This document shows, in pieces, positions 9,110-45,174 of a DNA stretch of 56,900 bases. Below the pieces are notes generated by a model. The model saw only the letters and a list, made by a program, of their open reading frames with translations. It did no database searches and was not told the DNA's origin. Within the stretch, counting starts at the first letter, position 1. Each line of letters begins with the position of its first letter. This stretch comes from Candidatus Binatia bacterium (GTDB lineage Bacteria; Desulfobacterota; Binatia; UBA9968): the NCBI GenBank assembly GCA_040877705.1, contig JBBDNJ010000297.1, positions 1 through 56,900 of the forward strand, written 5' to 3'. The position numbers and the translations under genes are program-made.

Positions 9110-10615
9110 CTACACCGCGTCTTCCGGCCGTTCATACTTGGCCCTGCCCCATCGTTCCTTCAGAGTCGGATATGCCACGGTGAAAATAGTCACGGCGATC
9201 AGTATTAAGACCGTCGGAAAGAGCAACCATTTCGCACCATAGGCCGCGGTGGAGATCCACAAATAGTTTTCCGCGATCTTGCCGAGAATCAGTCCAAGGA
9301 TAAGCGGCGGCCGAGGCCAGCCGAATTTCACCATGAAATAGCCGATCACTCCGAAAATAAGAGTGGAGATAATATCCGTGAGGCTGTTGTTAGCGGTAAA
9401 GGAGCCAATGAACACCAGGAACATCAGGAACGGGATCAATAACGAACCGCGAATAAAGGTCAGGGCCGCCAGGTGATTGAGAACGAGGAAACAAATTCCG
9501 GCGACAATGATGTTGGCAATGATCAGTATCCAAACCATTGCAAACGTGACATCGAGCCGTGACTTGAGCATTTCCGGACCGGGGTTGAGTCCGACGATCA
9601 ACATGGCGCCGAGCAATAGGGCCATGCTGGCGCTGCCGGGAATACCAAACGCTAAGGTCGGAATGAGGTCGCCGCCGCGGGTGGCGTTGTTAGCCGCGCC
9701 GGGACCCAGGACGCCCTCGATGGCGCCTTTGCCGGCTCTCGATCTGTCTTTGAGGTTAGCCACAGAATGACCGTAGGCAATCCATTGAGCAACGCTGGCG
9801 CCCAAAACCGGCAATACACCAAAATAGACACCGATGAGGCTGCAACGAAACACCAGCCAGAAGTGCCGGAAGGTGTCTTTAACGCCTTCCATGACGCCGG
9901 TCAACTTGCCGCCTGGTTGGCTGCCGCCCGCTATGCTCGTGCCGCGGACCGCCAGATCGACGATCTCAGGTATAGCGAACAAGCCCACCACGACCGGAAT
10001 GAGATCGAGGCGGTCCCACAGATAGAGGCTGCCGAAAGTATAGCGCAGCGATCCGGTCTGTGGATCGACGCCGATAGAGGCTAACATCAAACCGATGCCG
10101 CCGGCCAATAGTCCTTTGATCAGCGATGGCCCGGCCAGTGTGCCGATAAAGGTGATGCCCATGATGGCAATGATGAACAACTCCGGCGATCCGAAGAGCA
10201 GGACGAGCGGACGCATGATCGGAATCGATATTGCCAATGAAATAGCTCCTATCACCGATCCCACCACGGAGCTTGTGATAGCGGCGCCGAGGGCGCGGCC
10301 CGCCTCGCCTTTCTTCGACATCGGATAGCCGTCAAGTACCAGTGCGGCTGCCGTACCTTCCCCAGGTATGCCGAACAGAATCGAAGTCAGATCGCCTGTA
10401 GTTGAAGTGACGGCCAGCATGCCCAGTAGCAATGAAAACGCCTCGATCGGGGTTTTAATGGTGTATGAGAATGGCATTATCAAGGCTAAAGTCGCCAGGC
10501 CGCCTATGCCGGGAAGAAGTCCAACAAAAAATCCGATGGATATCCCCATGAGCATATAGCCGAAAGCCGGCCACGCTAGGACTTGCCAAAATCCACTGAC
10601 GAAGGCTTCAAGCAT
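9110..10615 (-). CDS. tctA: tripartite tricarboxylate transporter large permease
   Basis: 501-aa polytopic membrane protein with the TctA-type LPGIGG motif near the N-terminus. It lies in an operon with TctB and TctC-type genes. Confidence 0.85.
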   Translation of the reverse strand: MLEAFVSGFWQVLAWPAFGYMLMGISIGFFVGLLPGIGGLATLALIMPFSYTIKTPIEAFSLLLGMLAVTSTTGDLTSILFGIPGEGTAAALVLDGYPMSKKGEAGRALGAAITSSVVGSVIGAISLAISIPIMRPLVLLFGSPELFIIAIMGITFIGTLAGPSLIKGLLAGGIGLMLASIGVDPQTGSLRYTFGSLYLWDRLDLIPVVVGLFAIPEIVDLAVRGTSIAGGSQPGGKLTGVMEGVKDTFRHFWLVFRCSLIGVYFGVLPVLGASVAQWIAYGHSVANLKDRSRAGKGAIEGVLGPGAANNATRGGDLIPTLAFGIPGSASMALLLGAMLIVGLNPGPEMLKSRLDVTFAMVWILIIANIIVAGICFLVLNHLAALTFIRGSLLIPFLMFLVFIGSFTANNSLTDIISTLIFGVIGYFMVKFGWPRPPLILGLILGKIAENYLWISTAAYGAKWLLFPTVLILIAVTIFTVAYPTLKERWGRAKYERPEDAV

Positions 10616-34325: not shown

Positions 34326-34413
34326 TTCGAATCTCCGTGCGTAAATCCCGTCAACTGACAGCGGTTCAATAAATCAGCGCGTGTATCTGATTCCGTATCC
34401 TTTAGAGGAGCGT

Positions 34414-35394
34414 ATGACACGGAGTAAGCCTGTAGCACGAGCGATACAATTACTTTCTCTAATAGAGAAAAATTCCAACGGGCTACGAGTAACCGACATG
34501 GCGGACCAGCTCGGCGCGCCGCTCAGAGCCGTTTACCGTGACCTGGATGTTTTACAGCAACTTGAGGTGCCGCTTTATACGGACAGAGACGGCAAAGAAA
34601 GCTACTGGAAGGTCGATCCGGATTATCGCAACAGGTTATCCATTCCTTTCACTCTGTCAGAACTTCTCTCGCTGTATTTTGCGCAAGACTCCATCCGCCC
34701 ACTGAACGGGACGGTACTCTATGATTCGCTGGACTCCCTCTTCGATAAGGTTAGAGCGATTCTGCCCAAGCCTGTTTTCCGACAAATGATTGGCTTGCGC
34801 GGCAGCTTTCTCTCCGGAATTCCTGCTCAAAAGGATTACGGAACATATCGCGAGTTCATCAAGATCATTCAGGAAGGCATCGAAGAGCGGAAAACACTTG
34901 AGCTTCTCTATCGCGCTTTGAACAAGGAGCCGACCGGTCGCAAGGTTGATCCATACGGAGTTCACCTTCATAACGGGACGCTGTATCTAATCGGCTACTG
35001 CCACCTGCGCAAAGACATCAGATCCTTCGTCGTGGATCGGATGCAGAAAATCAAACTGGCTGAGGAATCGTTCGCTATGCCGCCCGGATTTTCTTTGGAG
35101 AGCTACCTCCGTCACAGCTTCGGCATGTATACGGAGGAGCTCGTCCGGGTAAGAGTGCGCTTTCATAAATCCCTGACTCGCTATTTATTGGAACGGCGCT
35201 GGCACCCCACGCAAAAAAACAAAAAGCTAAACGACGGCTCGTTGGAACTGTCCTTCGAAGTAGCCGGCACAAAAGAGATCAAGACCTGGATCTTGGGCTT
35301 CGGTTCTCTCGCCAAGGCCCTCGAACCGGCACCGTTGGTCAAAGAGATCAAGGACGACCTGAAGAAATCGCTGAAATCCTACGCCAAACCATAG
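34414..35394 (+). CDS. HTH-WYL-domain transcriptional regulator (PafBC/BrxR/CapW-like architecture)
   Basis: N-terminal wHTH (ARAIQLLSLIEKNSNGLRVTDMADQLGAPLRAVYRDLDVL), a central WYL-type block (RKVDPYGVHLHNGTLYLIGYCHLRKDIRSFVVDRM) and a C-terminal extension. ATG 34414 lies behind an AGAGGAG site. Confidence 0.8.
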   Translation: MTRSKPVARAIQLLSLIEKNSNGLRVTDMADQLGAPLRAVYRDLDVLQQLEVPLYTDRDGKESYWKVDPDYRNRLSIPFTLSELLSLYFAQDSIRPLNGTVLYDSLDSLFDKVRAILPKPVFRQMIGLRGSFLSGIPAQKDYGTYREFIKIIQEGIEERKTLELLYRALNKEPTGRKVDPYGVHLHNGTLYLIGYCHLRKDIRSFVVDRMQKIKLAEESFAMPPGFSLESYLRHSFGMYTEELVRVRVRFHKSLTRYLLERRWHPTQKNKKLNDGSLELSFEVAGTKEIKTWILGFGSLAKALEPAPLVKEIKDDLKKSLKSYAKP

Positions 35395-35417
35395 CAACGT
35401 CCTCTCAAAACAACTAG

Positions 35418-35455
35418 AAACATGTGACACGATTCGACAAACGTCTGTGGTATAA
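35418..35455 (+). promoter_or_regulatory. 38-nt promoter/operator-like element, copy 1
   Basis: AAACATGTGACACGATTCGACAAACGTCTGTGGTATAA is identical to 37298-37335 except for one base. It ends in an extended -10-like TGGTATAA and lies 66 nt upstream of the 35522 ORF. Confidence 0.55.
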
Positions 35456-37142: not shown

Positions 37143-37297
37143 TCACATCACGAAAAACCAAAGTGATAACAACGGCGGTGATCTTCCAAATTTCATGGAG
37201 CATTTAAACTACTTGAACGGAGCGAAGCGGTTGAACGATTTGAACGTTTTGAACACTGACGAGGTCATTATAGAGTCGGCTGGCAGAAAAATCTTAA

Positions 37298-37335
37298 AAA
37301 CATGTGACACGATTCGACAAACGTCTGTGATATAA
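37298..37335 (+). promoter_or_regulatory. 38-nt promoter/operator-like element, copy 2
   Basis: AAACATGTGACACGATTCGACAAACGTCTGTGATATAA, 74 nt upstream of the CARF-like gene. Confidence 0.55.
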
Positions 37336-37409
37336 GGGGGCTTGTTTCTGAGGCAGAGGCAAGCGGTGTCGGAGAGATACCGAAGTGTTGGCTGTACATA
37401 TTCTCAATC

Positions 37410-38042
37410 GTGAGTGAACAGGTACTCATTGCGACGTTAGGTTCGGAGCCTCAGGTTGTCACTCTGGTACTGGACCAGCTGCGGGAGAAGGGGAATCCGA
37501 TAGCGGAAGTGATAGTCGTGCACACCATGGGAGAATCAGTGCAGCATTCATTAATGCGTCTCAATGATGAGTTCAGGCGGGCGGGAAGCCCCCGTTACAG
37601 AGCCGTGACGGTGGAAGACAAAGGTTGGCCGGTAGCCGATATCGGTACGGAGGATGAAGTGGCGGCACTGTTGCGGACGCTCTACCGGACGGTCCTCGCC
37701 GAGAAGCGAGCCGGGAGGCTTGTGCACATGAGCATCGCCGGCGGACGAAAACCAATGGCGGTCTATGGAATGGCCGTCGCCCAGCTTCTCTTCGATGAGG
37801 ATGATCGAGTGTGGCACTTGCTTTCAGAAGGGTGGAAGCCGGGGGATGAGCGGGTGATGCATGCGAAACCTGGCGATGCAATTTCACTCCTGCCCGTGCC
37901 GGTGTTGCGCTGGAGTTCGGTGTCGCCAGTGATGACGGAGCTGGCGGTTCCTAACCGCGACCGGCAAGCGCCGCTTGCTAGGCTGCGGAAGAAAGAGGTC
38001 GAGGTTTCGCTCGACTTTCGCGGCCCAGGTCCAAACGATTGA
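37410..38042 (+). CDS. CRISPR-associated Cas_NE0113-family (CARF-like) protein
   Basis: VLIATLGSEPQVVTLVLDQL at the N-terminus and HMSIAGGRKPMAVYG match my recollection of the NE0113 (TIGR02584-type) family pattern (tlG.sPqvvTe...; h.SiAGGRKtM). No fused effector domain is evident in the 210 aa. GTG start. Confidence 0.65.
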   Translation: MSEQVLIATLGSEPQVVTLVLDQLREKGNPIAEVIVVHTMGESVQHSLMRLNDEFRRAGSPRYRAVTVEDKGWPVADIGTEDEVAALLRTLYRTVLAEKRAGRLVHMSIAGGRKPMAVYGMAVAQLLFDEDDRVWHLLSEGWKPGDERVMHAKPGDAISLLPVPVLRWSSVSPVMTELAVPNRDRQAPLARLRKKEVEVSLDFRGPGPND

Positions 38043-38074
38043 CGGCGCTGCCGCACCCGTTTTGTGATTGCTTT

Positions 38075-38100
38075 CGGACTTTCGGAATTCCGAAAGTCCG
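38075..38100. repeat. perfect 26-nt palindrome
   Basis: CGGACTTTCGGAATTCCGAAAGTCCG (13-nt arms), 33 nt downstream of the CARF gene stop. There is no following T-run, so it may be a hairpin terminator or a symmetric protein-binding site. Confidence 0.6.
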
Positions 38101-38246
38101 CAGTGGGAGGTGGGGGGATGGAAGGATTGGAAGGAGCGGCAAGAAGCATGAACAATTTGAACTATGAGAATAGACGGTGCATAAGGCATCCTGGTTGTAG
38201 GCCGGAGATTATTGTAAAACCCGGCTCTGAGTTTTAGGCCGTAGAG

Positions 38247-38642
38247 ATGAAAGCGATCAGATTGACCCCGGCAGAAAGAGCGGCGATCACAAGAAAGTAG
38301 CGACGGGCGAGCGCAAAGGCTCATGCTACAGCTCGAAACGCCAAGTTGTTTGCGAAATACGCTCTTGGCAAAGCGGGGTGGAAGGTTGCGTCTCTCGATA
38401 GCCCCTAAGGCTTCGAATACAAAGGCGTCGTGGACCTTGTGGCGGTCAAGCGAAACAACCGATCTCCCGATGAGCTTACGATCATGCTGGTTCAGGTTAA
38501 GGGTGGGAGCGCGAGAGTAACGAAGGAGGAGCTTTCGAGACTTCGGAGAGCTGCAAGCCACCCGCGGGTTACATGGAACGTGGCAGCAAAACCCGCTAAA
38601 AGCGTCCGCTTCAAGAAGTCCTTAGATTGGGAGACTGAATAA
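38247..38642 (+). pseudogene. decayed Hjc/PD-(D/E)xK-like small nuclease gene with two in-frame stops
   Basis: A single frame from ATG 38247 to the stop at 38640-38642 reads MKAIRLTPAERAAITRK*RRASAKAHATARNAKLFAKYALGKAGWKVASLDSP*GFEYKGVVDLVAVKR...IMLVQVKGG, with TAG at 38298 and TAA at 38406. The G-W-x-V ... DLVAV ... VQVK layout resembles archaeal-type Holliday-junction-resolvase-like nucleases. Its stop overlaps the cas10d ATG (TAATG). Confidence 0.45.
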
Positions 38643-41296
38643 TGGATCGAAAGGAAATCATGACTAAGGCGGCAGCATGGATGCAGGCGCGTGGCTGGAA
38701 AGAGAAACTTGCCAAGCGTCGAGGTTATGAGCAGAGCCTGTTTGAGCACAGCCTGATTGAGCTTGATGTTCTCCTTGAGCTTCTGCCGATCCTCGCGAGC
38801 CCGCGACACTACGGCCTAAGTGAAGCCGAGGAAGCAGTCCTGACAATCGCCGTGCTCGCCCACGATGTCGGTAAAGAAACTGACGCCTGGCAGGTCTACA
38901 TCGGCGATCCCCAGCCGGACCGCTGGGTGCCTCACATTCTTCCCGAGTTGACCAGAGCAGTGGTACCGGAGCTCTGTGCGACATTAGGGTTTTCGGAGCA
39001 AGGTGAGGCAGTTGAGCGCATCATGGCGCACTGTGCTGAGTTCCACCACAACCGGCCAGGAAGAAGTGATGGGGCCATCTTGGAAGCGATGCTTAGTGGC
39101 GGGTCGGATCGCTTTCTCACACTGGCCTATTTGGTCAAGGCCATTGACCACTTCTGCTCCGCTGCCACGGTTGCCGATGCCGAGGACGCGTTGAAGAATG
39201 ATCCCGCGCTGGGCCGGCATCTCGTCGTCGCGTCTCACGAAGCCATGGTTCGGGGCGTCTCGACGGCATTCCTTCACCACGCCGCTCGAGCCGAATTCCA
39301 GCAACGAGGATGGAAGCCTCTCCTGTATTTCTCCAACGCCACTTTATATGCAGCCGACCCTAGCGATCACCATAATATTCCCACGGCAGAAGAGATTGGC
39401 AACGGCCTCAAGACGGAAATTGACAGGTCCATCAGTCGAGACGTAACCCCACTGATGGTTGGAAGCCCCACAGGGAACATTCTCCCCAAGCCGGATCTCT
39501 TCGCCTTCAGCGAGTCCCGGCAGTACCTCCGCAGTGCCGCAAGCAAAATTAGTCCGCAAAGCTTCGCCAAGAAGAAGCTGCCGGCAAAACGCAAAGTGGT
39601 CGAGGACTACTGGAAACTCCAGGGCCGAACCACCAAACCCACGGATGCACAGGTTGAGGAAGAGTCCGCTCGCATCTCGGTAGCCCAGCCCGAGATGCTT
39701 GTCTTCAAGTTTTTCAAAGCCATGTTGGACCCGGACAAGGTCGAGGTTGTTGGTGAGGATGGCGCCGTTCTAGCCAAGAAGCTCTACGAGGAAACGTTCG
39801 GGTCTGGCAGTTGGGCTGCGCTCCAGTCCACGTCCACCATTATGCCAGCCAAGGACATGGGAAAGACTATCGACTACTTCTGGGCGCTGCCAGGTGCGGC
39901 GGTAGGCCACTCTCAAGTTACAAAGGTCGCAGAGCTTCCAAACGAGATTCGCGTGCAGGTATTGATTGATCTACTCGATGCTATCGCCCAGAAGGTCTAT
40001 TCAGCAATTAGCCGACCATCGCCGAGAGATAAGTTGTCTCAGGACATGGCCACAGCATTCATCAATGATCTCCTGAGGCCAATAGACGGCGGTAACGTTC
40101 AAGCTATTGCTCAACAGCAACTAAGCTACTACACACAGTCAAAGCCCTTTGCTGGAAAAGAGAGCGCGAAGGGAATTTATCTGTGTCCGATCTGTAATGC
40201 TCCTTTCGATCAGAATCATGGAATCAAAGCCTCGGCCGACTTCATCGAAAATCCACAGACCCACACTAATCGTGGGATAGCGCATGGATCCTTCGGTTAC
40301 ATCATGGTCTGCGTTACTTGCTACTACGAGCGGCTCCTCCTCCAGATACTTCTCGGGAGTCGTCCGGCGGAAATGATCACGCTTTTGCCCCGACTCAACC
40401 TGGGGCCGGGGAAAGGCGAGCAGTTGGTCAGCAAAGTCCAGGGTTGGGTAGAGGCAGCCAAAGGGCAGATGCGAGGTGAAACCGGCAACCTGGAGTTCGG
40501 ATTTTCGCTCGGTTTCACCGATCAAGCAGCCCGTCACATAAAGGAGCGTGACCCCTTTTCTCTAAAGCCCGAGGAGCTGCTCTCGCTCTTCAGTTACCGT
40601 TTTACCGCCGACACCCGGCAGAAAAGACGCCGAGAAGCGATGAGACGGCTTAAAGAGGAGTTCGATAACGACTTCGAAGCCCTTAATCTTGCCACTGGTC
40701 AATCCTTCGGGACATGGGACGATGCTGTTGAGGCCCTCATCGCAAATCGACTTAATCAGCAGGAGTTCAGGGCGATTCGTCGGGAGGTCTTTCGCCTCTA
40801 TGAAACGATACATCTGATTTGCGAGACGCCTAACTTGATCTTCATCCCGCTCAGTTACGAGATCGCGTCCGGTAACGACGAATCGGAAACGAGCCGAGGG
40901 CTGCGGCGGCTCCACGTGGCCTTGCTCCTGAGCCTTGTCTTTGACGCCTCTGTGGCCATTCACAAGACGGATGAACCAGTGGACTTCCGAGGCGGACTAG
41001 GGGCAGCCTACGTGCCTCCGATCCCGGCGGTCCGCTCTCTTGTGGGCTACGACTGGCTGTCCATCGGTGAGGCAAAGCGTTGGCTCTCCGCGATCGGCGC
41101 GGCAAGCCTGTTGGTGCGAGATACCGGTCTGCCCGCACGCTCCGCTCTTTATCAAATTCTTACGATGGACCCTCCGGAAAAGCTCGCTCGTCGCATTGAG
41201 GAAAAAGGCGACACTTCTCTGACGCCGCGTCATATTAGTTTAATCGAGCAGTTGCCAGCCTTTCACAGAACCCGGGAAAAGGAGGTGCGCCCGTGA
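38642..41296 (+). CDS. cas10d: Cas10d-like large subunit with N-terminal HD nuclease domain (type I-D-like)
   Basis: 884 aa with HD-domain residues near the N-terminus (LFEHSL; VLAHDVGKE, HD at 38861-38866; AEFHHNRPG). An internal Cys pair cluster (LCPICNAPF ... MVCVTCYYE) resembles the Cas10 Zn finger. No GGDD-type cyclase motif was seen. It heads an operon with Csc2-, Csc1- and Cas3'-like genes. Confidence 0.7.
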   Translation: MDRKEIMTKAAAWMQARGWKEKLAKRRGYEQSLFEHSLIELDVLLELLPILASPRHYGLSEAEEAVLTIAVLAHDVGKETDAWQVYIGDPQPDRWVPHILPELTRAVVPELCATLGFSEQGEAVERIMAHCAEFHHNRPGRSDGAILEAMLSGGSDRFLTLAYLVKAIDHFCSAATVADAEDALKNDPALGRHLVVASHEAMVRGVSTAFLHHAARAEFQQRGWKPLLYFSNATLYAADPSDHHNIPTAEEIGNGLKTEIDRSISRDVTPLMVGSPTGNILPKPDLFAFSESRQYLRSAASKISPQSFAKKKLPAKRKVVEDYWKLQGRTTKPTDAQVEEESARISVAQPEMLVFKFFKAMLDPDKVEVVGEDGAVLAKKLYEETFGSGSWAALQSTSTIMPAKDMGKTIDYFWALPGAAVGHSQVTKVAELPNEIRVQVLIDLLDAIAQKVYSAISRPSPRDKLSQDMATAFINDLLRPIDGGNVQAIAQQQLSYYTQSKPFAGKESAKGIYLCPICNAPFDQNHGIKASADFIENPQTHTNRGIAHGSFGYIMVCVTCYYERLLLQILLGSRPAEMITLLPRLNLGPGKGEQLVSKVQGWVEAAKGQMRGETGNLEFGFSLGFTDQAARHIKERDPFSLKPEELLSLFSYRFTADTRQKRRREAMRRLKEEFDNDFEALNLATGQSFGTWDDAVEALIANRLNQQEFRAIRREVFRLYETIHLICETPNLIFIPLSYEIASGNDESETSRGLRRLHVALLLSLVFDASVAIHKTDEPVDFRGGLGAAYVPPIPAVRSLVGYDWLSIGEAKRWLSAIGAASLLVRDTGLPARSALYQILTMDPPEKLARRIEEKGDTSLTPRHISLIEQLPAFHRTREKEVRP

Positions 41297-42873: not shown

Positions 42874-45174
42874 ATGGAGAAACTCAAAAAGATCTGGAGC
42901 CAATATGGCGGGGAAAAATGCGTGCTACTTGTGGGCGCAGGCGTCTCGTATTCGCAACCTTCCAATTTTCCGACAGGTTCGGCTTTCATGAGCACTGTTT
43001 TGAAAAAATGTGCAGTGGATGACAGTACGAAAATACTATTAGACGACCTTTGTGATAACAAGAGATCTGATGGAAATTGGCTCAGATTTGAAGGCTTACT
43101 GGAGGTTCTCGCACGGTTCGTTGACAAGGAATTAGGCGTCTTGAAAATGTATGCTGGCAACCAGAAAGGAGACAATCAGTTTGATGGGGGAATACCTAAT
43201 GACAATCACGGGTTTTTGGCGAGCCTTATTAGGGCTGGCCATTATGTTGTTACAACAAATTTTGATGTGCTAATCGAAAAGGCGATGAATCCTAGCAATA
43301 AGGGTTTTGTTACCGAGGATCAATGGGAGAAATTTACAGCAGGGGCGAACCCTGGTTCGCTGCTTAAAATACACGGTAGCCTACTACGGTTTGAAAATGG
43401 AGGCTGGGTTTGGAATGACGGTGAACACCCTGCCGCCCCTGTGGTCACACTACGCCGAGTTTCACGAACACGGCAATCCATTGTGAGGCGGAACAAATTC
43501 GGTGAACTCTTGGGTGATTTCCCACTGCTGGTTGTAGGATATTCCGCCAGCGATGACTTTGACGTGTCTCGGTGGCTACTCGAGATCAAATCGAATCAGC
43601 CAGTGCTATGGATTCAGCACACGCAAACTAGTAAGCCGGATCACTGCCAATACCTTTCCGGGGCCGACGTGGCATTGGGAATGGCTGGAGTTTCCCCGGG
43701 GCTGCTAGAAATTGCACAGCACTGGCAGAGGGATAACGGAAGTACTTATGGCAGGAAATTGGACTTACTCCATGTTTTTAAGTGCAGCACCCCAGAAGCA
43801 CTGGCGGCGTTCTCCGCTACCTTAGGTCAGCAAGGCTCCTCCCCAAACTTTTCGAAAGAGAGCCATAAAGAAGAACCCTCGGGAAGTCTTGATAGTTTCC
43901 TTAAGACTTGGGCAGCTAAGCATGTTCCTAATAAGTGGAGCCAGTCTTTAGTCAGTGGGGCTCTCCTTGCACACTGTTTTCACTTTCCAGCAGCGAGGGA
44001 GCTTTTGGAGAAGTCTCTCGAGGAGGCCAAGGACGACTATCAGAAAACCCAAAGTCTCGTGCTGCTTTCCGAAACAGAATCGGAGCTCCCCTTGCCCGAA
44101 GACAAGGCGGTCGCGCTACAGCATGCAGCGCAAGCCTTTGACACAAGCCCCGGGCAAAGAGAGGCTCGTCTGGCTAGAGCAAATGCTCTGCTCTATTGCA
44201 GTCGGCTGCTTAAGAACCTGTCTTTCCTGCAGCGCGAAGAGTTGAAAAAAGAGGCAGAGAGTATATGGAAGGCAATTTGGGACAATTCTAAAGCTTCACC
44301 TTTCGAAAGATCGCGTGCAGCGGCGGAACTTTATCGGATGGATCGACACTTTGGGGGGAGAAATGCGCCGGAGATAGATAAAATAAGACAACAAGACCTG
44401 GCAGTCGAAGCCTTGATCATTCATGAAACCGCACGCCGGGACAAGTGGCAACAGGCGAGATCTGTGACAGATATCAGAACAGCCATTCAGGATATGACAG
44501 CTGCGGTGGATCTCCGTGAACGACTTGGGGAGTTACGCGGGCTCTGCGCCAGCACGAATGTGCTTGGCAATATGTACCAACGACTGTGGGAGTGGATCAC
44601 ATGGGAAGTGGGCTCAAACCCTGGAGAAGCGGAACAGGAAATTAAACGGGCCTTGTACTGGCATGAGCGATCTGTGGAAATCGCCGAGAGATACGGCTTC
44701 AGATGGGATAGAGGTCAGGCTGAAGTTGCACTTAGCGTCCTTTGCCTACGTTGGGAAAATGATTCTGTTAAGGCTTGGTCACGTCTTCTCGAAGCTGAGT
44801 GCGAACGCGAAACCAACGGTTCTGCGGACAATATAAAACTTGACCTTCAGCGGGCTATTTTGGTCACGTTTCGGAGGGGGACTGTAACAGAGGGAGTAAG
44901 AGTCGCCCGTGACCTATTTGCACACATCGTAAACGACTACGGGCAAAAAGAAGACACACGGCAGGACCGGGGGATCGGAGCAGCACAAGTTAACATGAGC
45001 ATTTGCGATTGGGTCCTAGGTAACTCATTTGTGTTGCCGTGGCCTGACGTGTTTAAGGGAAGCACCTATTGGAGAAAGCGAATTATGAAAACCCAAGCAA
45101 AACTTGATGAGCATCGGGAGAAAGGCATGCCTGAGCCCGACCTCCATCGGATATTCTTGGATCCACTCCCTTGA
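42874..45174 (+). CDS. SIR2-like (SIR2_2-type, NADase-class) domain protein with long C-terminal helical/TPR-like repeat region
   Basis: The N-terminal roughly 235 aa carry the SIR2_2 pattern in order: VLLVGAGVSYS (42934-42948), VVTTNFDVLIEKA (Asn codon 43258-43260), LLKIHGSL (His codon 43372-43374) and LLVVGYSASDDFD. The remaining roughly 500 aa are helix-repeat-like. No Walker A motif is present. A GGAGG site lies 8 nt upstream of the ATG. Confidence 0.75.
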   Translation: MEKLKKIWSQYGGEKCVLLVGAGVSYSQPSNFPTGSAFMSTVLKKCAVDDSTKILLDDLCDNKRSDGNWLRFEGLLEVLARFVDKELGVLKMYAGNQKGDNQFDGGIPNDNHGFLASLIRAGHYVVTTNFDVLIEKAMNPSNKGFVTEDQWEKFTAGANPGSLLKIHGSLLRFENGGWVWNDGEHPAAPVVTLRRVSRTRQSIVRRNKFGELLGDFPLLVVGYSASDDFDVSRWLLEIKSNQPVLWIQHTQTSKPDHCQYLSGADVALGMAGVSPGLLEIAQHWQRDNGSTYGRKLDLLHVFKCSTPEALAAFSATLGQQGSSPNFSKESHKEEPSGSLDSFLKTWAAKHVPNKWSQSLVSGALLAHCFHFPAARELLEKSLEEAKDDYQKTQSLVLLSETESELPLPEDKAVALQHAAQAFDTSPGQREARLARANALLYCSRLLKNLSFLQREELKKEAESIWKAIWDNSKASPFERSRAAAELYRMDRHFGGRNAPEIDKIRQQDLAVEALIIHETARRDKWQQARSVTDIRTAIQDMTAAVDLRERLGELRGLCASTNVLGNMYQRLWEWITWEVGSNPGEAEQEIKRALYWHERSVEIAERYGFRWDRGQAEVALSVLCLRWENDSVKAWSRLLEAECERETNGSADNIKLDLQRAILVTFRRGTVTEGVRVARDLFAHIVNDYGQKEDTRQDRGIGAAQVNMSICDWVLGNSFVLPWPDVFKGSTYWRKRIMKTQAKLDEHREKGMPEPDLHRIFLDPLP

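Follow-up and report, generated by a model that had tools for sequence, protein, structure and literature searches.

The stretch of DNA analyzed here (the window) comprises 56,900 nucleotides of contig JBBDNJ010000297.1 from a metagenome-assembled genome (MAG) of a Candidatus Binatia bacterium, and its subject is an open reading frame (ORF) of 210 codons at 37410-38042 on the forward strand, with a GTG start, whose product carries a CARF domain. We conclude that this CARF ORF is a degenerate member of the Csx14-like branch of Cas_NE0113 and not a new kind of system. Its alignments show it as a 3′-truncated copy of a longer gene, one that joins the CARF domain to a LuxR-type helix-turn-helix (HTH) domain. 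It is probably what is left of the 5′ part of a type III leader regulator gene at a recombination junction, and it is most likely a non-functional relic. The ORF divides into two parts, the second of which was modelled with a very low predicted local distance difference test score (pLDDT):

37410 to 37946, + strand: CARF (Cas_NE0113/Csx14-like) coding part, codons 1-179 of a CARF-LuxR-HTH gene formerly of about 283 codons
37947 to 38042, + strand: unrelated tail of 31 codons and a stop, in place of the linker and LuxR/GerE HTH; the family alignment ends here, there is no HTH, and the tail pLDDT is below 50

The 210-residue protein is a genuine CARF sensor domain of the NE0113/Csx14 kind, as had been proposed in an earlier reading made from the letters alone (the sequence-only reading). 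It matches Pfam family PF09623 (Cas_NE0113) with 131.2 bits (E 5.9e-38; gathering cut-off 23 bits) over residues 13-187, covering model positions 1-197 of 208. Among the curated NCBIfam models, Csx14 (TIGR03642) comes closest, at 82.9 bits under a cut-off of 90.35; the Crn1 model (NF040581) reaches 24 bits against a cut-off of 125, and the NE0113/“Csm6” model scores far under its own. The blocks that had suggested the family, TLGSEPQVVT (here ATLGSEPQVVT) and SIAGGRKPM, are both present, and their columns are invariant across the family alignment. An AlphaFold2 model built with 29 sequences has a mean pLDDT of 80.5, and over residues 1-110 the score exceeds 90. A Rossmann-like α/β domain takes up residues 1-179, while residues 180-210 fall below 50. 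When this model was compared with the PDB by Foldseek, the top matches were all CARF domains, at E values of 4.5e-8 to 2e-5, namely those of Cad1, Sso2081, Sis0455 (Crn1), Cam1, Csa3, Csm6, and Sis0811. No effector domain is fused to the protein, and on this point the sequence-only reading was right for the window copy.

Aligned to the ring nuclease Sso2081 (E 9e-11), the family profile places SIAGGRKPM over DITGGRKSM. In this alignment, R113-K114 of the window protein fall on R105-K106 of Sso2081 and Sis0455, a pair that in Sis0455 is needed for both binding and cleavage of cyclic tetra-adenylate (cA4) (PMC9638899). Likewise, ATLGSEP lies over ATLGTSP, so that the Crn1 serine S11 corresponds to E13, a glutamate that is invariant or nearly so across the family; position 12 varies among Ser, Thr, and Ala. 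Of the conserved Ser (S11/S12) and Lys (K106/K169) in the Crn1 active site, the Lys is thus retained, along with the Arg before it. Sis0455 can do without S11, whereas Sis0811 cannot (PMC9638899). The retained R113-K114 pair, taken by itself, suggests that the window CARF domain would bind cyclic oligoadenylate (cOA).

The window protein can be aligned to its family only as far as the sequence ...SPVMTELAV, at about residue 179-180, and is divergent thereafter. The closest locus at the DNA level, L007 on an ENA metagenome contig, is 89% identical over window positions 37286-37946 with a single gap; the CARF part matches L007:4413-4949, and the proteins are 78% identical (P0003 being the L007 protein). 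The same boundary is seen more widely. In a blastn comparison with 86 related loci, 45 alignments span the 3′ part of the CARF sequence; 29 of these stop at 37945-37950, and none extends beyond 37950. An HTH is missing from every frame of 37850-38700, and no other contig of the MAG carries an HTH fragment or a cmr gene. Because homology stops at 37946-37950 and no HTH is encoded downstream or elsewhere in the genome, the last 31 codons form a tail that arose by chance, which agrees with the very low confidence of the model there. The truncated allele occurs in no other sample (a protein cluster of 1), and the contig continues without a break for 37 kb on the upstream side of the junction and 19 kb on the downstream side.

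The tail DNA (37947-38064) may be either a scrambled piece of the linker or foreign in origin; its semi-global alignment with the linker/HTH DNA of the related genome G022, described below, was gappy and unconvincing. An ORF of 225 codons on the opposite strand (37884-38561) matches no family and was treated as spurious. A short RLRKKE/RLRKRE resemblance was seen in the tail and is not relied on.

The nature of the intact protein is clear from its relatives. A search of 5.8 billion proteins returned 335 relatives at E <= 0.001, and nearly all of the best 120 of these are about 283 residues long and combine PF09623 with PF00196 (GerE/LuxR HTH); the window protein is 45-79% identical to family members (P0003-P0121). 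The GerE match was re-confirmed in P0003 (26.7 bits, cut-off 23.5), and the family profile matches NarL DNA-binding domains at E 1e-4. The AlphaFold2 model of full-length P0003 (pLDDT 88.5) shows a CARF domain at residues 1-179, a long helix at 184-210, the HTH at 213-257, and a last helix, and it aligns over both domains, about 230-280 columns, with the Csa3-cA4 structure and with Sis0811. Public databases label these relatives “Csx14” or “CRISPR-associated ring nuclease”; three intact ones score 78-85 bits with the Csx14 model TIGR03642, under its cut-off of 90.35.

The genomic setting of the intact genes is equally consistent. Full-length copies are found at 76 of 80 metagenome loci. Type III linkage was counted over the 47 of these 80 loci that have at least 3 kb of downstream flank, and at 46 of them type III genes (Cmr or Csm/Cas10) lie on the same strand, 45 having been identified by tblastn and L097 by a Pfam match to Csm1/Cas10; L107 is the sole orphan. 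In L004-L009, the type III genes stand directly 3′ of the CARF-HTH gene on the same strand. Four of these loci (L004, L005, L007, and L008) have the order Cmr1-Cmr2 (with palm2)-Cmr3-Cmr4-Cmr5-Cmr6, with Card1, Csx1, or a CARF effector of the APE2256 type after them, and a gap of about 100 bp separates the CARF-HTH gene from the first cmr gene; in L006, the CARF-HTH gene lies upstream of a different Cas10/RAMP set. A WYL regulator gene is often found just upstream of the intact gene. It is tempting to propose that the intact proteins sense cOA and regulate the transcription of type III operons, with a logic like that of Csa3 and Sis0811, and they may also cleave cOA. A literature search turned up only unrelated papers and no published account of a CARF-LuxR subfamily. 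The sequence-only reading had taken the CARF ORF for an orphan sensor in need of a new ligand source; this finds no support, as the family is a CARF-LuxR-HTH one tied to type III systems and the window copy has lost both its HTH and its type III partner. Its further suggestion of a regulator probably holds for the intact relatives, but not for the window copy, which has no DNA-binding domain.

What could such a sensor respond to in the present genome? The MAG measures 5.46 Mb in 373 contigs, with 96% completeness and 7% contamination. The searches for type III Cas10 and for CD-NTase genes that the sequence-only reading had proposed were both run. In this genome, Cas10 palm2, Cmr2, RAMP, and mCpol gave nothing above noise; homologues of Cmr1-6, Cas10, Csx1, Card1, and APE2256, sought with queries from related loci, were not found, nor was a second cas locus. 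A 31-bit Csm1 match on contig C103, considered as a possible Cas10, proved to be RNase Y, matched through its HD domain. A cyclase-competent Cas10 is neither linked to the CARF ORF nor found across the assembled genome. Producers of cyclic nucleotides are nonetheless present in the genome, as its two cyclic-oligonucleotide-based antiphage signalling systems (CBASS) show. One (contig C172:7806-12843) is type II-like and combines a SAVED effector with a CD-NTase, an E1/E2-like ThiF protein, and a JAB protein. The second (contig C119:24267-25735) is a minimal system consisting of a CD-NTase and a predicted membrane protein of 182 residues. Each has its own effector, the SAVED protein and the transmembrane protein, respectively, and nothing ties either system to the CARF ORF.

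The CARF ORF stands between a group of regulatory and accessory genes and a type I-D-variant CRISPR operon. All genes are on the forward strand, in the order HTH-WYL gene, Zn-ribbon-like ORF, Fic gene, CARF ORF, about 600 bp without an intact gene, and the I-D-variant operon:

34381 to 35394, + strand: HTH-WYL-WCX regulator (Pfam WYL, WCX, and HTH), syntenic partner of the CARF-HTH gene in L007
35522 to 37142, + strand: Zn-ribbon-like ORF of 171 codons and Fic protein
38247 to 38642, + strand: small PD-(D/E)xK-like pseudogene, part of the native leader of the Cas10d-like operon, with in-frame stops at 38298-38300 and 38406-38408
38642 to 41296, + strand: Cas10d-like large subunit (884 residues; HD domain, Zn finger), with weak TIGR03174 and Cas3 HD matches, heading the operon
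42874 to 45174: SIR2 gene, between csc2 and csc1

The WYL protein is 76% identical to that encoded directly upstream of the CARF-HTH gene in L007. The operon consists of the genes for the Cas10d-like protein, a 203-residue protein, Csc2/Cas7d, a 766-residue SIR2 protein, Csc1/Cas5d, a 327-residue protein, and Cas3′; 3′ of the last come Cas6, Cas1, and Cas4 and then a CRISPR array with 37-nt repeats that runs to the contig end. As the sequence-only reading had noticed, the Cas10d-like protein has no GGDD motif: a search of its 884 residues for GG[DE][DE]-type motifs was empty, with the HD motif and Cys pairs present. Absence of GGDD is the known state of Cas10d, and WYL or CARF (Csa3) regulators have been described from type I-D loci (PMC10212523).

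Five related I-D-variant loci, whose Cas10d-like proteins are 43-78% identical, share the order Cas6-Cas10d-x203-Csc2-Csc1-x327-Cas3′...Cas1-Cas4, in which x203 and x327 stand for the two ORFs of those sizes. The CARF gene and the SIR2 gene are both absent from all five, so the two genes have no history in common. Comparison of these loci indicates that the CARF gene does not belong to the type I-D variant and that the Cas10d-like protein is its neighbor, not its functional partner. Moreover, csc2 and csc1 are adjacent in all five; since SIR2 is missing there, its insertion is specific to the window among the loci seen. The closest I-D-variant locus, L017, is 92% identical in Csc2 and 94% in Cas3′, and there the 41-nt element discussed below abuts a leader equivalent to window positions 38247-38995. 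The small PD-(D/E)xK-like gene of this leader overlaps the cas10d start and is 85% identical in nucleotides to the sequence that immediately precedes cas10d in L017. In G022 it is an intact ORF of 127 codons with a weak Mrr_cat match; the L017 copy is also broken.

Several short modules recur in these leader regions, and their positions in the window and in related loci are as follows:

35415 to 35455, + strand: 41-nt element, copy 1, directly after the WYL gene and before the Zn-ribbon/Fic pair
37295 to 37335, + strand: 41-nt element, copy 2, 75 nt before the CARF start, containing TGnTATAAG, an extended -10-like sequence
38075 to 38100, no strand: perfect 26-nt palindrome CGGACTTTCGGAATTCCGAAAGTCCG, downstream of the CARF remnant
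L029:477-502, L031:2131-2156, and L023:11967-11992: the palindrome in related loci

The duplicated upstream element described in the sequence-only reading is real; the two copies are identical at 39 of 41 positions and flank the Zn-ribbon/Fic pair. L007 has a single copy, placed likewise between its WYL and CARF-HTH genes, and the 124 bp upstream of the CARF ORF, which include the element, are 87% identical to L007. L017 has three copies, two with an exact 31-nt core and one detected by blastn only; they each carry a piece of the 3′ end of the WYL gene (L017:8374-8612 and 9471-9589) and flank two unrelated inserted genes, those of a 452-residue SEC-C-motif protein and a 181-residue ORF6N/antirepressor-like protein. 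Diverged copies occur in L029 and L023. The element resembles a promoter/operator module that can be reused, and it would mark a cassette-accumulating site downstream of the WYL regulator. A scan for sigma-70 patterns did not call it as a promoter, the extended -10-like TGnTATAAG having been seen by eye only; its position and conservation suggest a promoter-like nature.

In two intact loci, the 26-nt palindrome precedes the CARF-HTH start by about 45 nt; in G022, as in the window, it is found downstream of the remnant. It may be an operator of the LuxR-type domain. Four TTGAAC(G) motifs were observed at window positions 37203-37254, between the Fic stop and copy 2 of the 41-nt element; this segment is 85% identical to intergenic L007 1927-1978. 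Isolated fragments comprising the first 24-93 codons of the Cas10d-like gene are seen at other loci as well (L019-L022 and L031), and in L031 (1981-2091) such a fragment is found between the WYL gene and an intact CARF-HTH gene. The isolated cas10d fragments point to repeated recombination between the leader regions of I-D-variant and type III loci.

Decayed copies of the gene are not confined to the window. Among 60 relatives, the sole carrier of the CARF gene is G022, of the same taxonomic family, whose island has the order PRiA4-like gene, WYL gene, Zn-ribbon ORF, CARF-HTH remnant, palindrome, and small nuclease gene. The G022 remnant is without residues 1-64 and ends at about residue 257, and a DUF86/HEPN-like ORF stands directly before its truncated 5′ end (L023:10990-11320). 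No Cas10 palm domain was found in this 99%-complete genome. The junction between HTH remnant and 26-nt palindrome is common to the window and G022; therefore, the first truncation is probably ancestral, and later deletions differed by lineage. Elsewhere, L010 has a CARF copy with a frameshifted C-terminus and no HTH, beside a WYL gene and a type I system without cmr genes. How CARF-HTH remnants arise is shown by the composite island of L081 (598-9850), in which an I-D-variant operon has on its left the last 40 codons of a CARF-HTH gene and on its right an intact CARF-HTH gene and then type III genes. As for selection, the ratio of nonsynonymous to synonymous substitution rates (dN/dS) between the window CARF part and L007, its nearest intact copy, is 0.30, as compared with 0.06-0.18 among intact copies, a value that does not separate a recent relic from a weakly constrained domain. 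Selection on the window copy looks relaxed.

We propose the following history. The intact protein would bind Cas10-made cOA in a Crn1-like pocket (GGRK) and would couple this signal to transcription through its C-terminal DNA-binding domain; it may also degrade the signal. Recombination among leader modules (WYL gene, 41-nt element, palindrome, and small nuclease gene) would have placed the CARF gene beside the I-D-variant operon, and the type III operon would have been lost. Decay of the CARF gene would have followed. A first truncation at about residue 257, common to the related genome, would have been followed by loss of codons 180-257 in the window and of codons 1-64 in the relative; this order of events is proposed from two genomes. 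The present product is a folded CARF domain with a junk tail of 31 residues, with neither a DNA-binding domain nor a known signal producer in the genome. Since its upstream region is intact, the CARF ORF may still be expressed.

Several observations do not sit easily with a dead gene. The 179 CARF codons contain no frameshift or stop, R113-K114 are retained, and conservation extends to the upstream region, the 41-nt element included (87% to L007). The size is plausible for an enzyme, as stand-alone CARF ring nucleases (Crn1) of about 180 residues exist. The dN/dS of 0.30 is not close to 1, and third codon positions account for 31 of the 58 differences from L007; this remaining purifying signal may reflect either a recent truncation or some constraint on the domain. 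Finally, the MAG is incomplete, so a type III locus could have escaped binning. Much of this evidence would also suit a truncated protein retained as a working stand-alone CARF protein, whether a Crn1-like ring nuclease or a cyclic-oligonucleotide sponge, which would damp signals from the two CBASS CD-NTases, from an unassembled type III system, or from incoming mobile elements. We hold such a role to be rather unlikely. The intact fold, the pair equivalent to R105-K106 of Sis0455/Sso2081 (PMC9638899), the conserved element and 5′ region, the dN/dS with its excess of third-position changes, the two CD-NTase genes, and the existence of ring nucleases of similar size (PMC12409355) argue for it. 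However, the S11 position of Crn1 is Glu family-wide (E13), which leaves ring-nuclease chemistry unassured even in intact members; both CBASS systems have their own effectors; the truncated allele is confined to this sample; G022 holds a different, clearly dead fragment; and five related I-D-variant loci do without a CARF gene. The more specific proposal of an exaptation, by which the truncated CARF domain would serve on its own as a binder of cyclic oligonucleotides or as a ring nuclease, with the WYL-linked element as its promoter, buffering CBASS or invader signals, strikes us as quite doubtful. By analogy with Csa3 and type I-A systems, a weaker variant may be considered, in which the ancestral intact CARF-HTH protein would have controlled the adjacent I-D-variant operon and so coupled cOA signalling to type I.

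Could the truncation be an artefact of assembly or binning, a chimeric join in an organism with a full-length CARF-HTH gene and a type III operon? The MAG is fragmented (373 contigs) and 7% contaminated, and leader modules are repeated in related loci, where such repeats can mislead assemblers. On the other hand, the independent assembly G022 shows the same order of CARF remnant, palindrome, and small gene; neither an HTH fragment nor a cmr gene turned up on any other contig of the MAG; and the contig runs on unbroken on both sides of the junction. We consider an artefact very unlikely. Lower still in our estimation, and highly improbable, is a CARF protein acting as functional partner of the I-D-variant/SIR2 locus, sensing ADP-ribose-type products or another signal and modulating the CRISPR system. 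Adjacency to the Cas10d-like operon in the same orientation, and the 41-nt element, speak for such a partnership, and nothing else does. The link to SIR2 raised in the sequence-only reading finds no counterpart in the five related loci, which lack both genes, or in any co-occurrence outside the window. The CARF family occurs with Cas10 cyclases in 46 of 47 loci, the pocket motif is the cA4-type GGRK, and the window copy has no output domain; moreover, cas10d is separated from the CARF ORF by a pseudogene and some 600 bp of leader in scrambled form.

The relic of a leader regulator, thus preferred, has two consequences for similar loci. Neither a new ligand nor SIR2-CARF signalling need be invoked for a cOA sensor that is found next to a CRISPR system lacking a cyclase; here the sensor is a leftover of the loss of a type III module from a composite CRISPR island. 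Short proteins annotated as “Csx14” or “ring nuclease” beside type I loci should be checked for truncation before they are read as orphan sensors. The CARF-LuxR-HTH family itself is large, heads a type III operon in 46 of 47 loci, and is apparently uncharacterized. Given the candidate operator palindrome and the Glu in place of the Crn1 serine, it is a reasonable target for the study of cOA-controlled transcription in bacteria.

Type III signalling is known to involve both CARF-HTH proteins and CARF ring nucleases (PMC12669027, PMC12409355, PMC9638899), and the window family can be set against the closest known systems. Its likeness to Crn1 (Sso2081, Sso1393, and Sis0455; PDB 7ygh and 7z55) lies in the CARF fold (Foldseek E about 2e-7; family profile E 9e-11), in the common motifs ATLG(S/T)xP and (I/L)xGGRK, including the Arg-Lys pair, and in the size of the CARF part, about 180 residues. 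It differs from Crn1 in the Glu at the S11 position, in the LuxR-type HTH of intact relatives, in the score with the NCBIfam model (24 versus 125 bits), and in a genome in which no type III system was found. Csx14 (TIGR03642) is the best curated sequence model for the window CARF part, and PMC12409355 treats it as a predicted ring nuclease of the Crn1 family. The window protein and the three intact relatives all fall under the Csx14 cut-off; the window family is a sister group of Csx14 with an added HTH domain, not the curated Csx14 equivalog.

The best structural match is the CARF domain of Cad1 (PDB 9c6a and 9c68; E 4.5e-8, TM-score to the target 0.75), which binds cA4 and cyclic hexa-adenylate (cA6). 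Cad1, however, has an adenosine deaminase effector, and the sequence identity is about 20%. In architecture, the intact relatives resemble Csa3 (CARF-winged HTH; PDB 2wte, and 6wxq with cA4) and the CARF-HTH ring nuclease Sis0811 (PDB 7pq2), all having an N-terminal CARF domain and a C-terminal DNA-binding domain and standing beside CRISPR operons. Unlike these, the relatives have an HTH of the LuxR/GerE/NarL type and not a winged helix, and they are linked to bacterial type III-B/III-A operons, whereas the window copy has kept no HTH of either kind.

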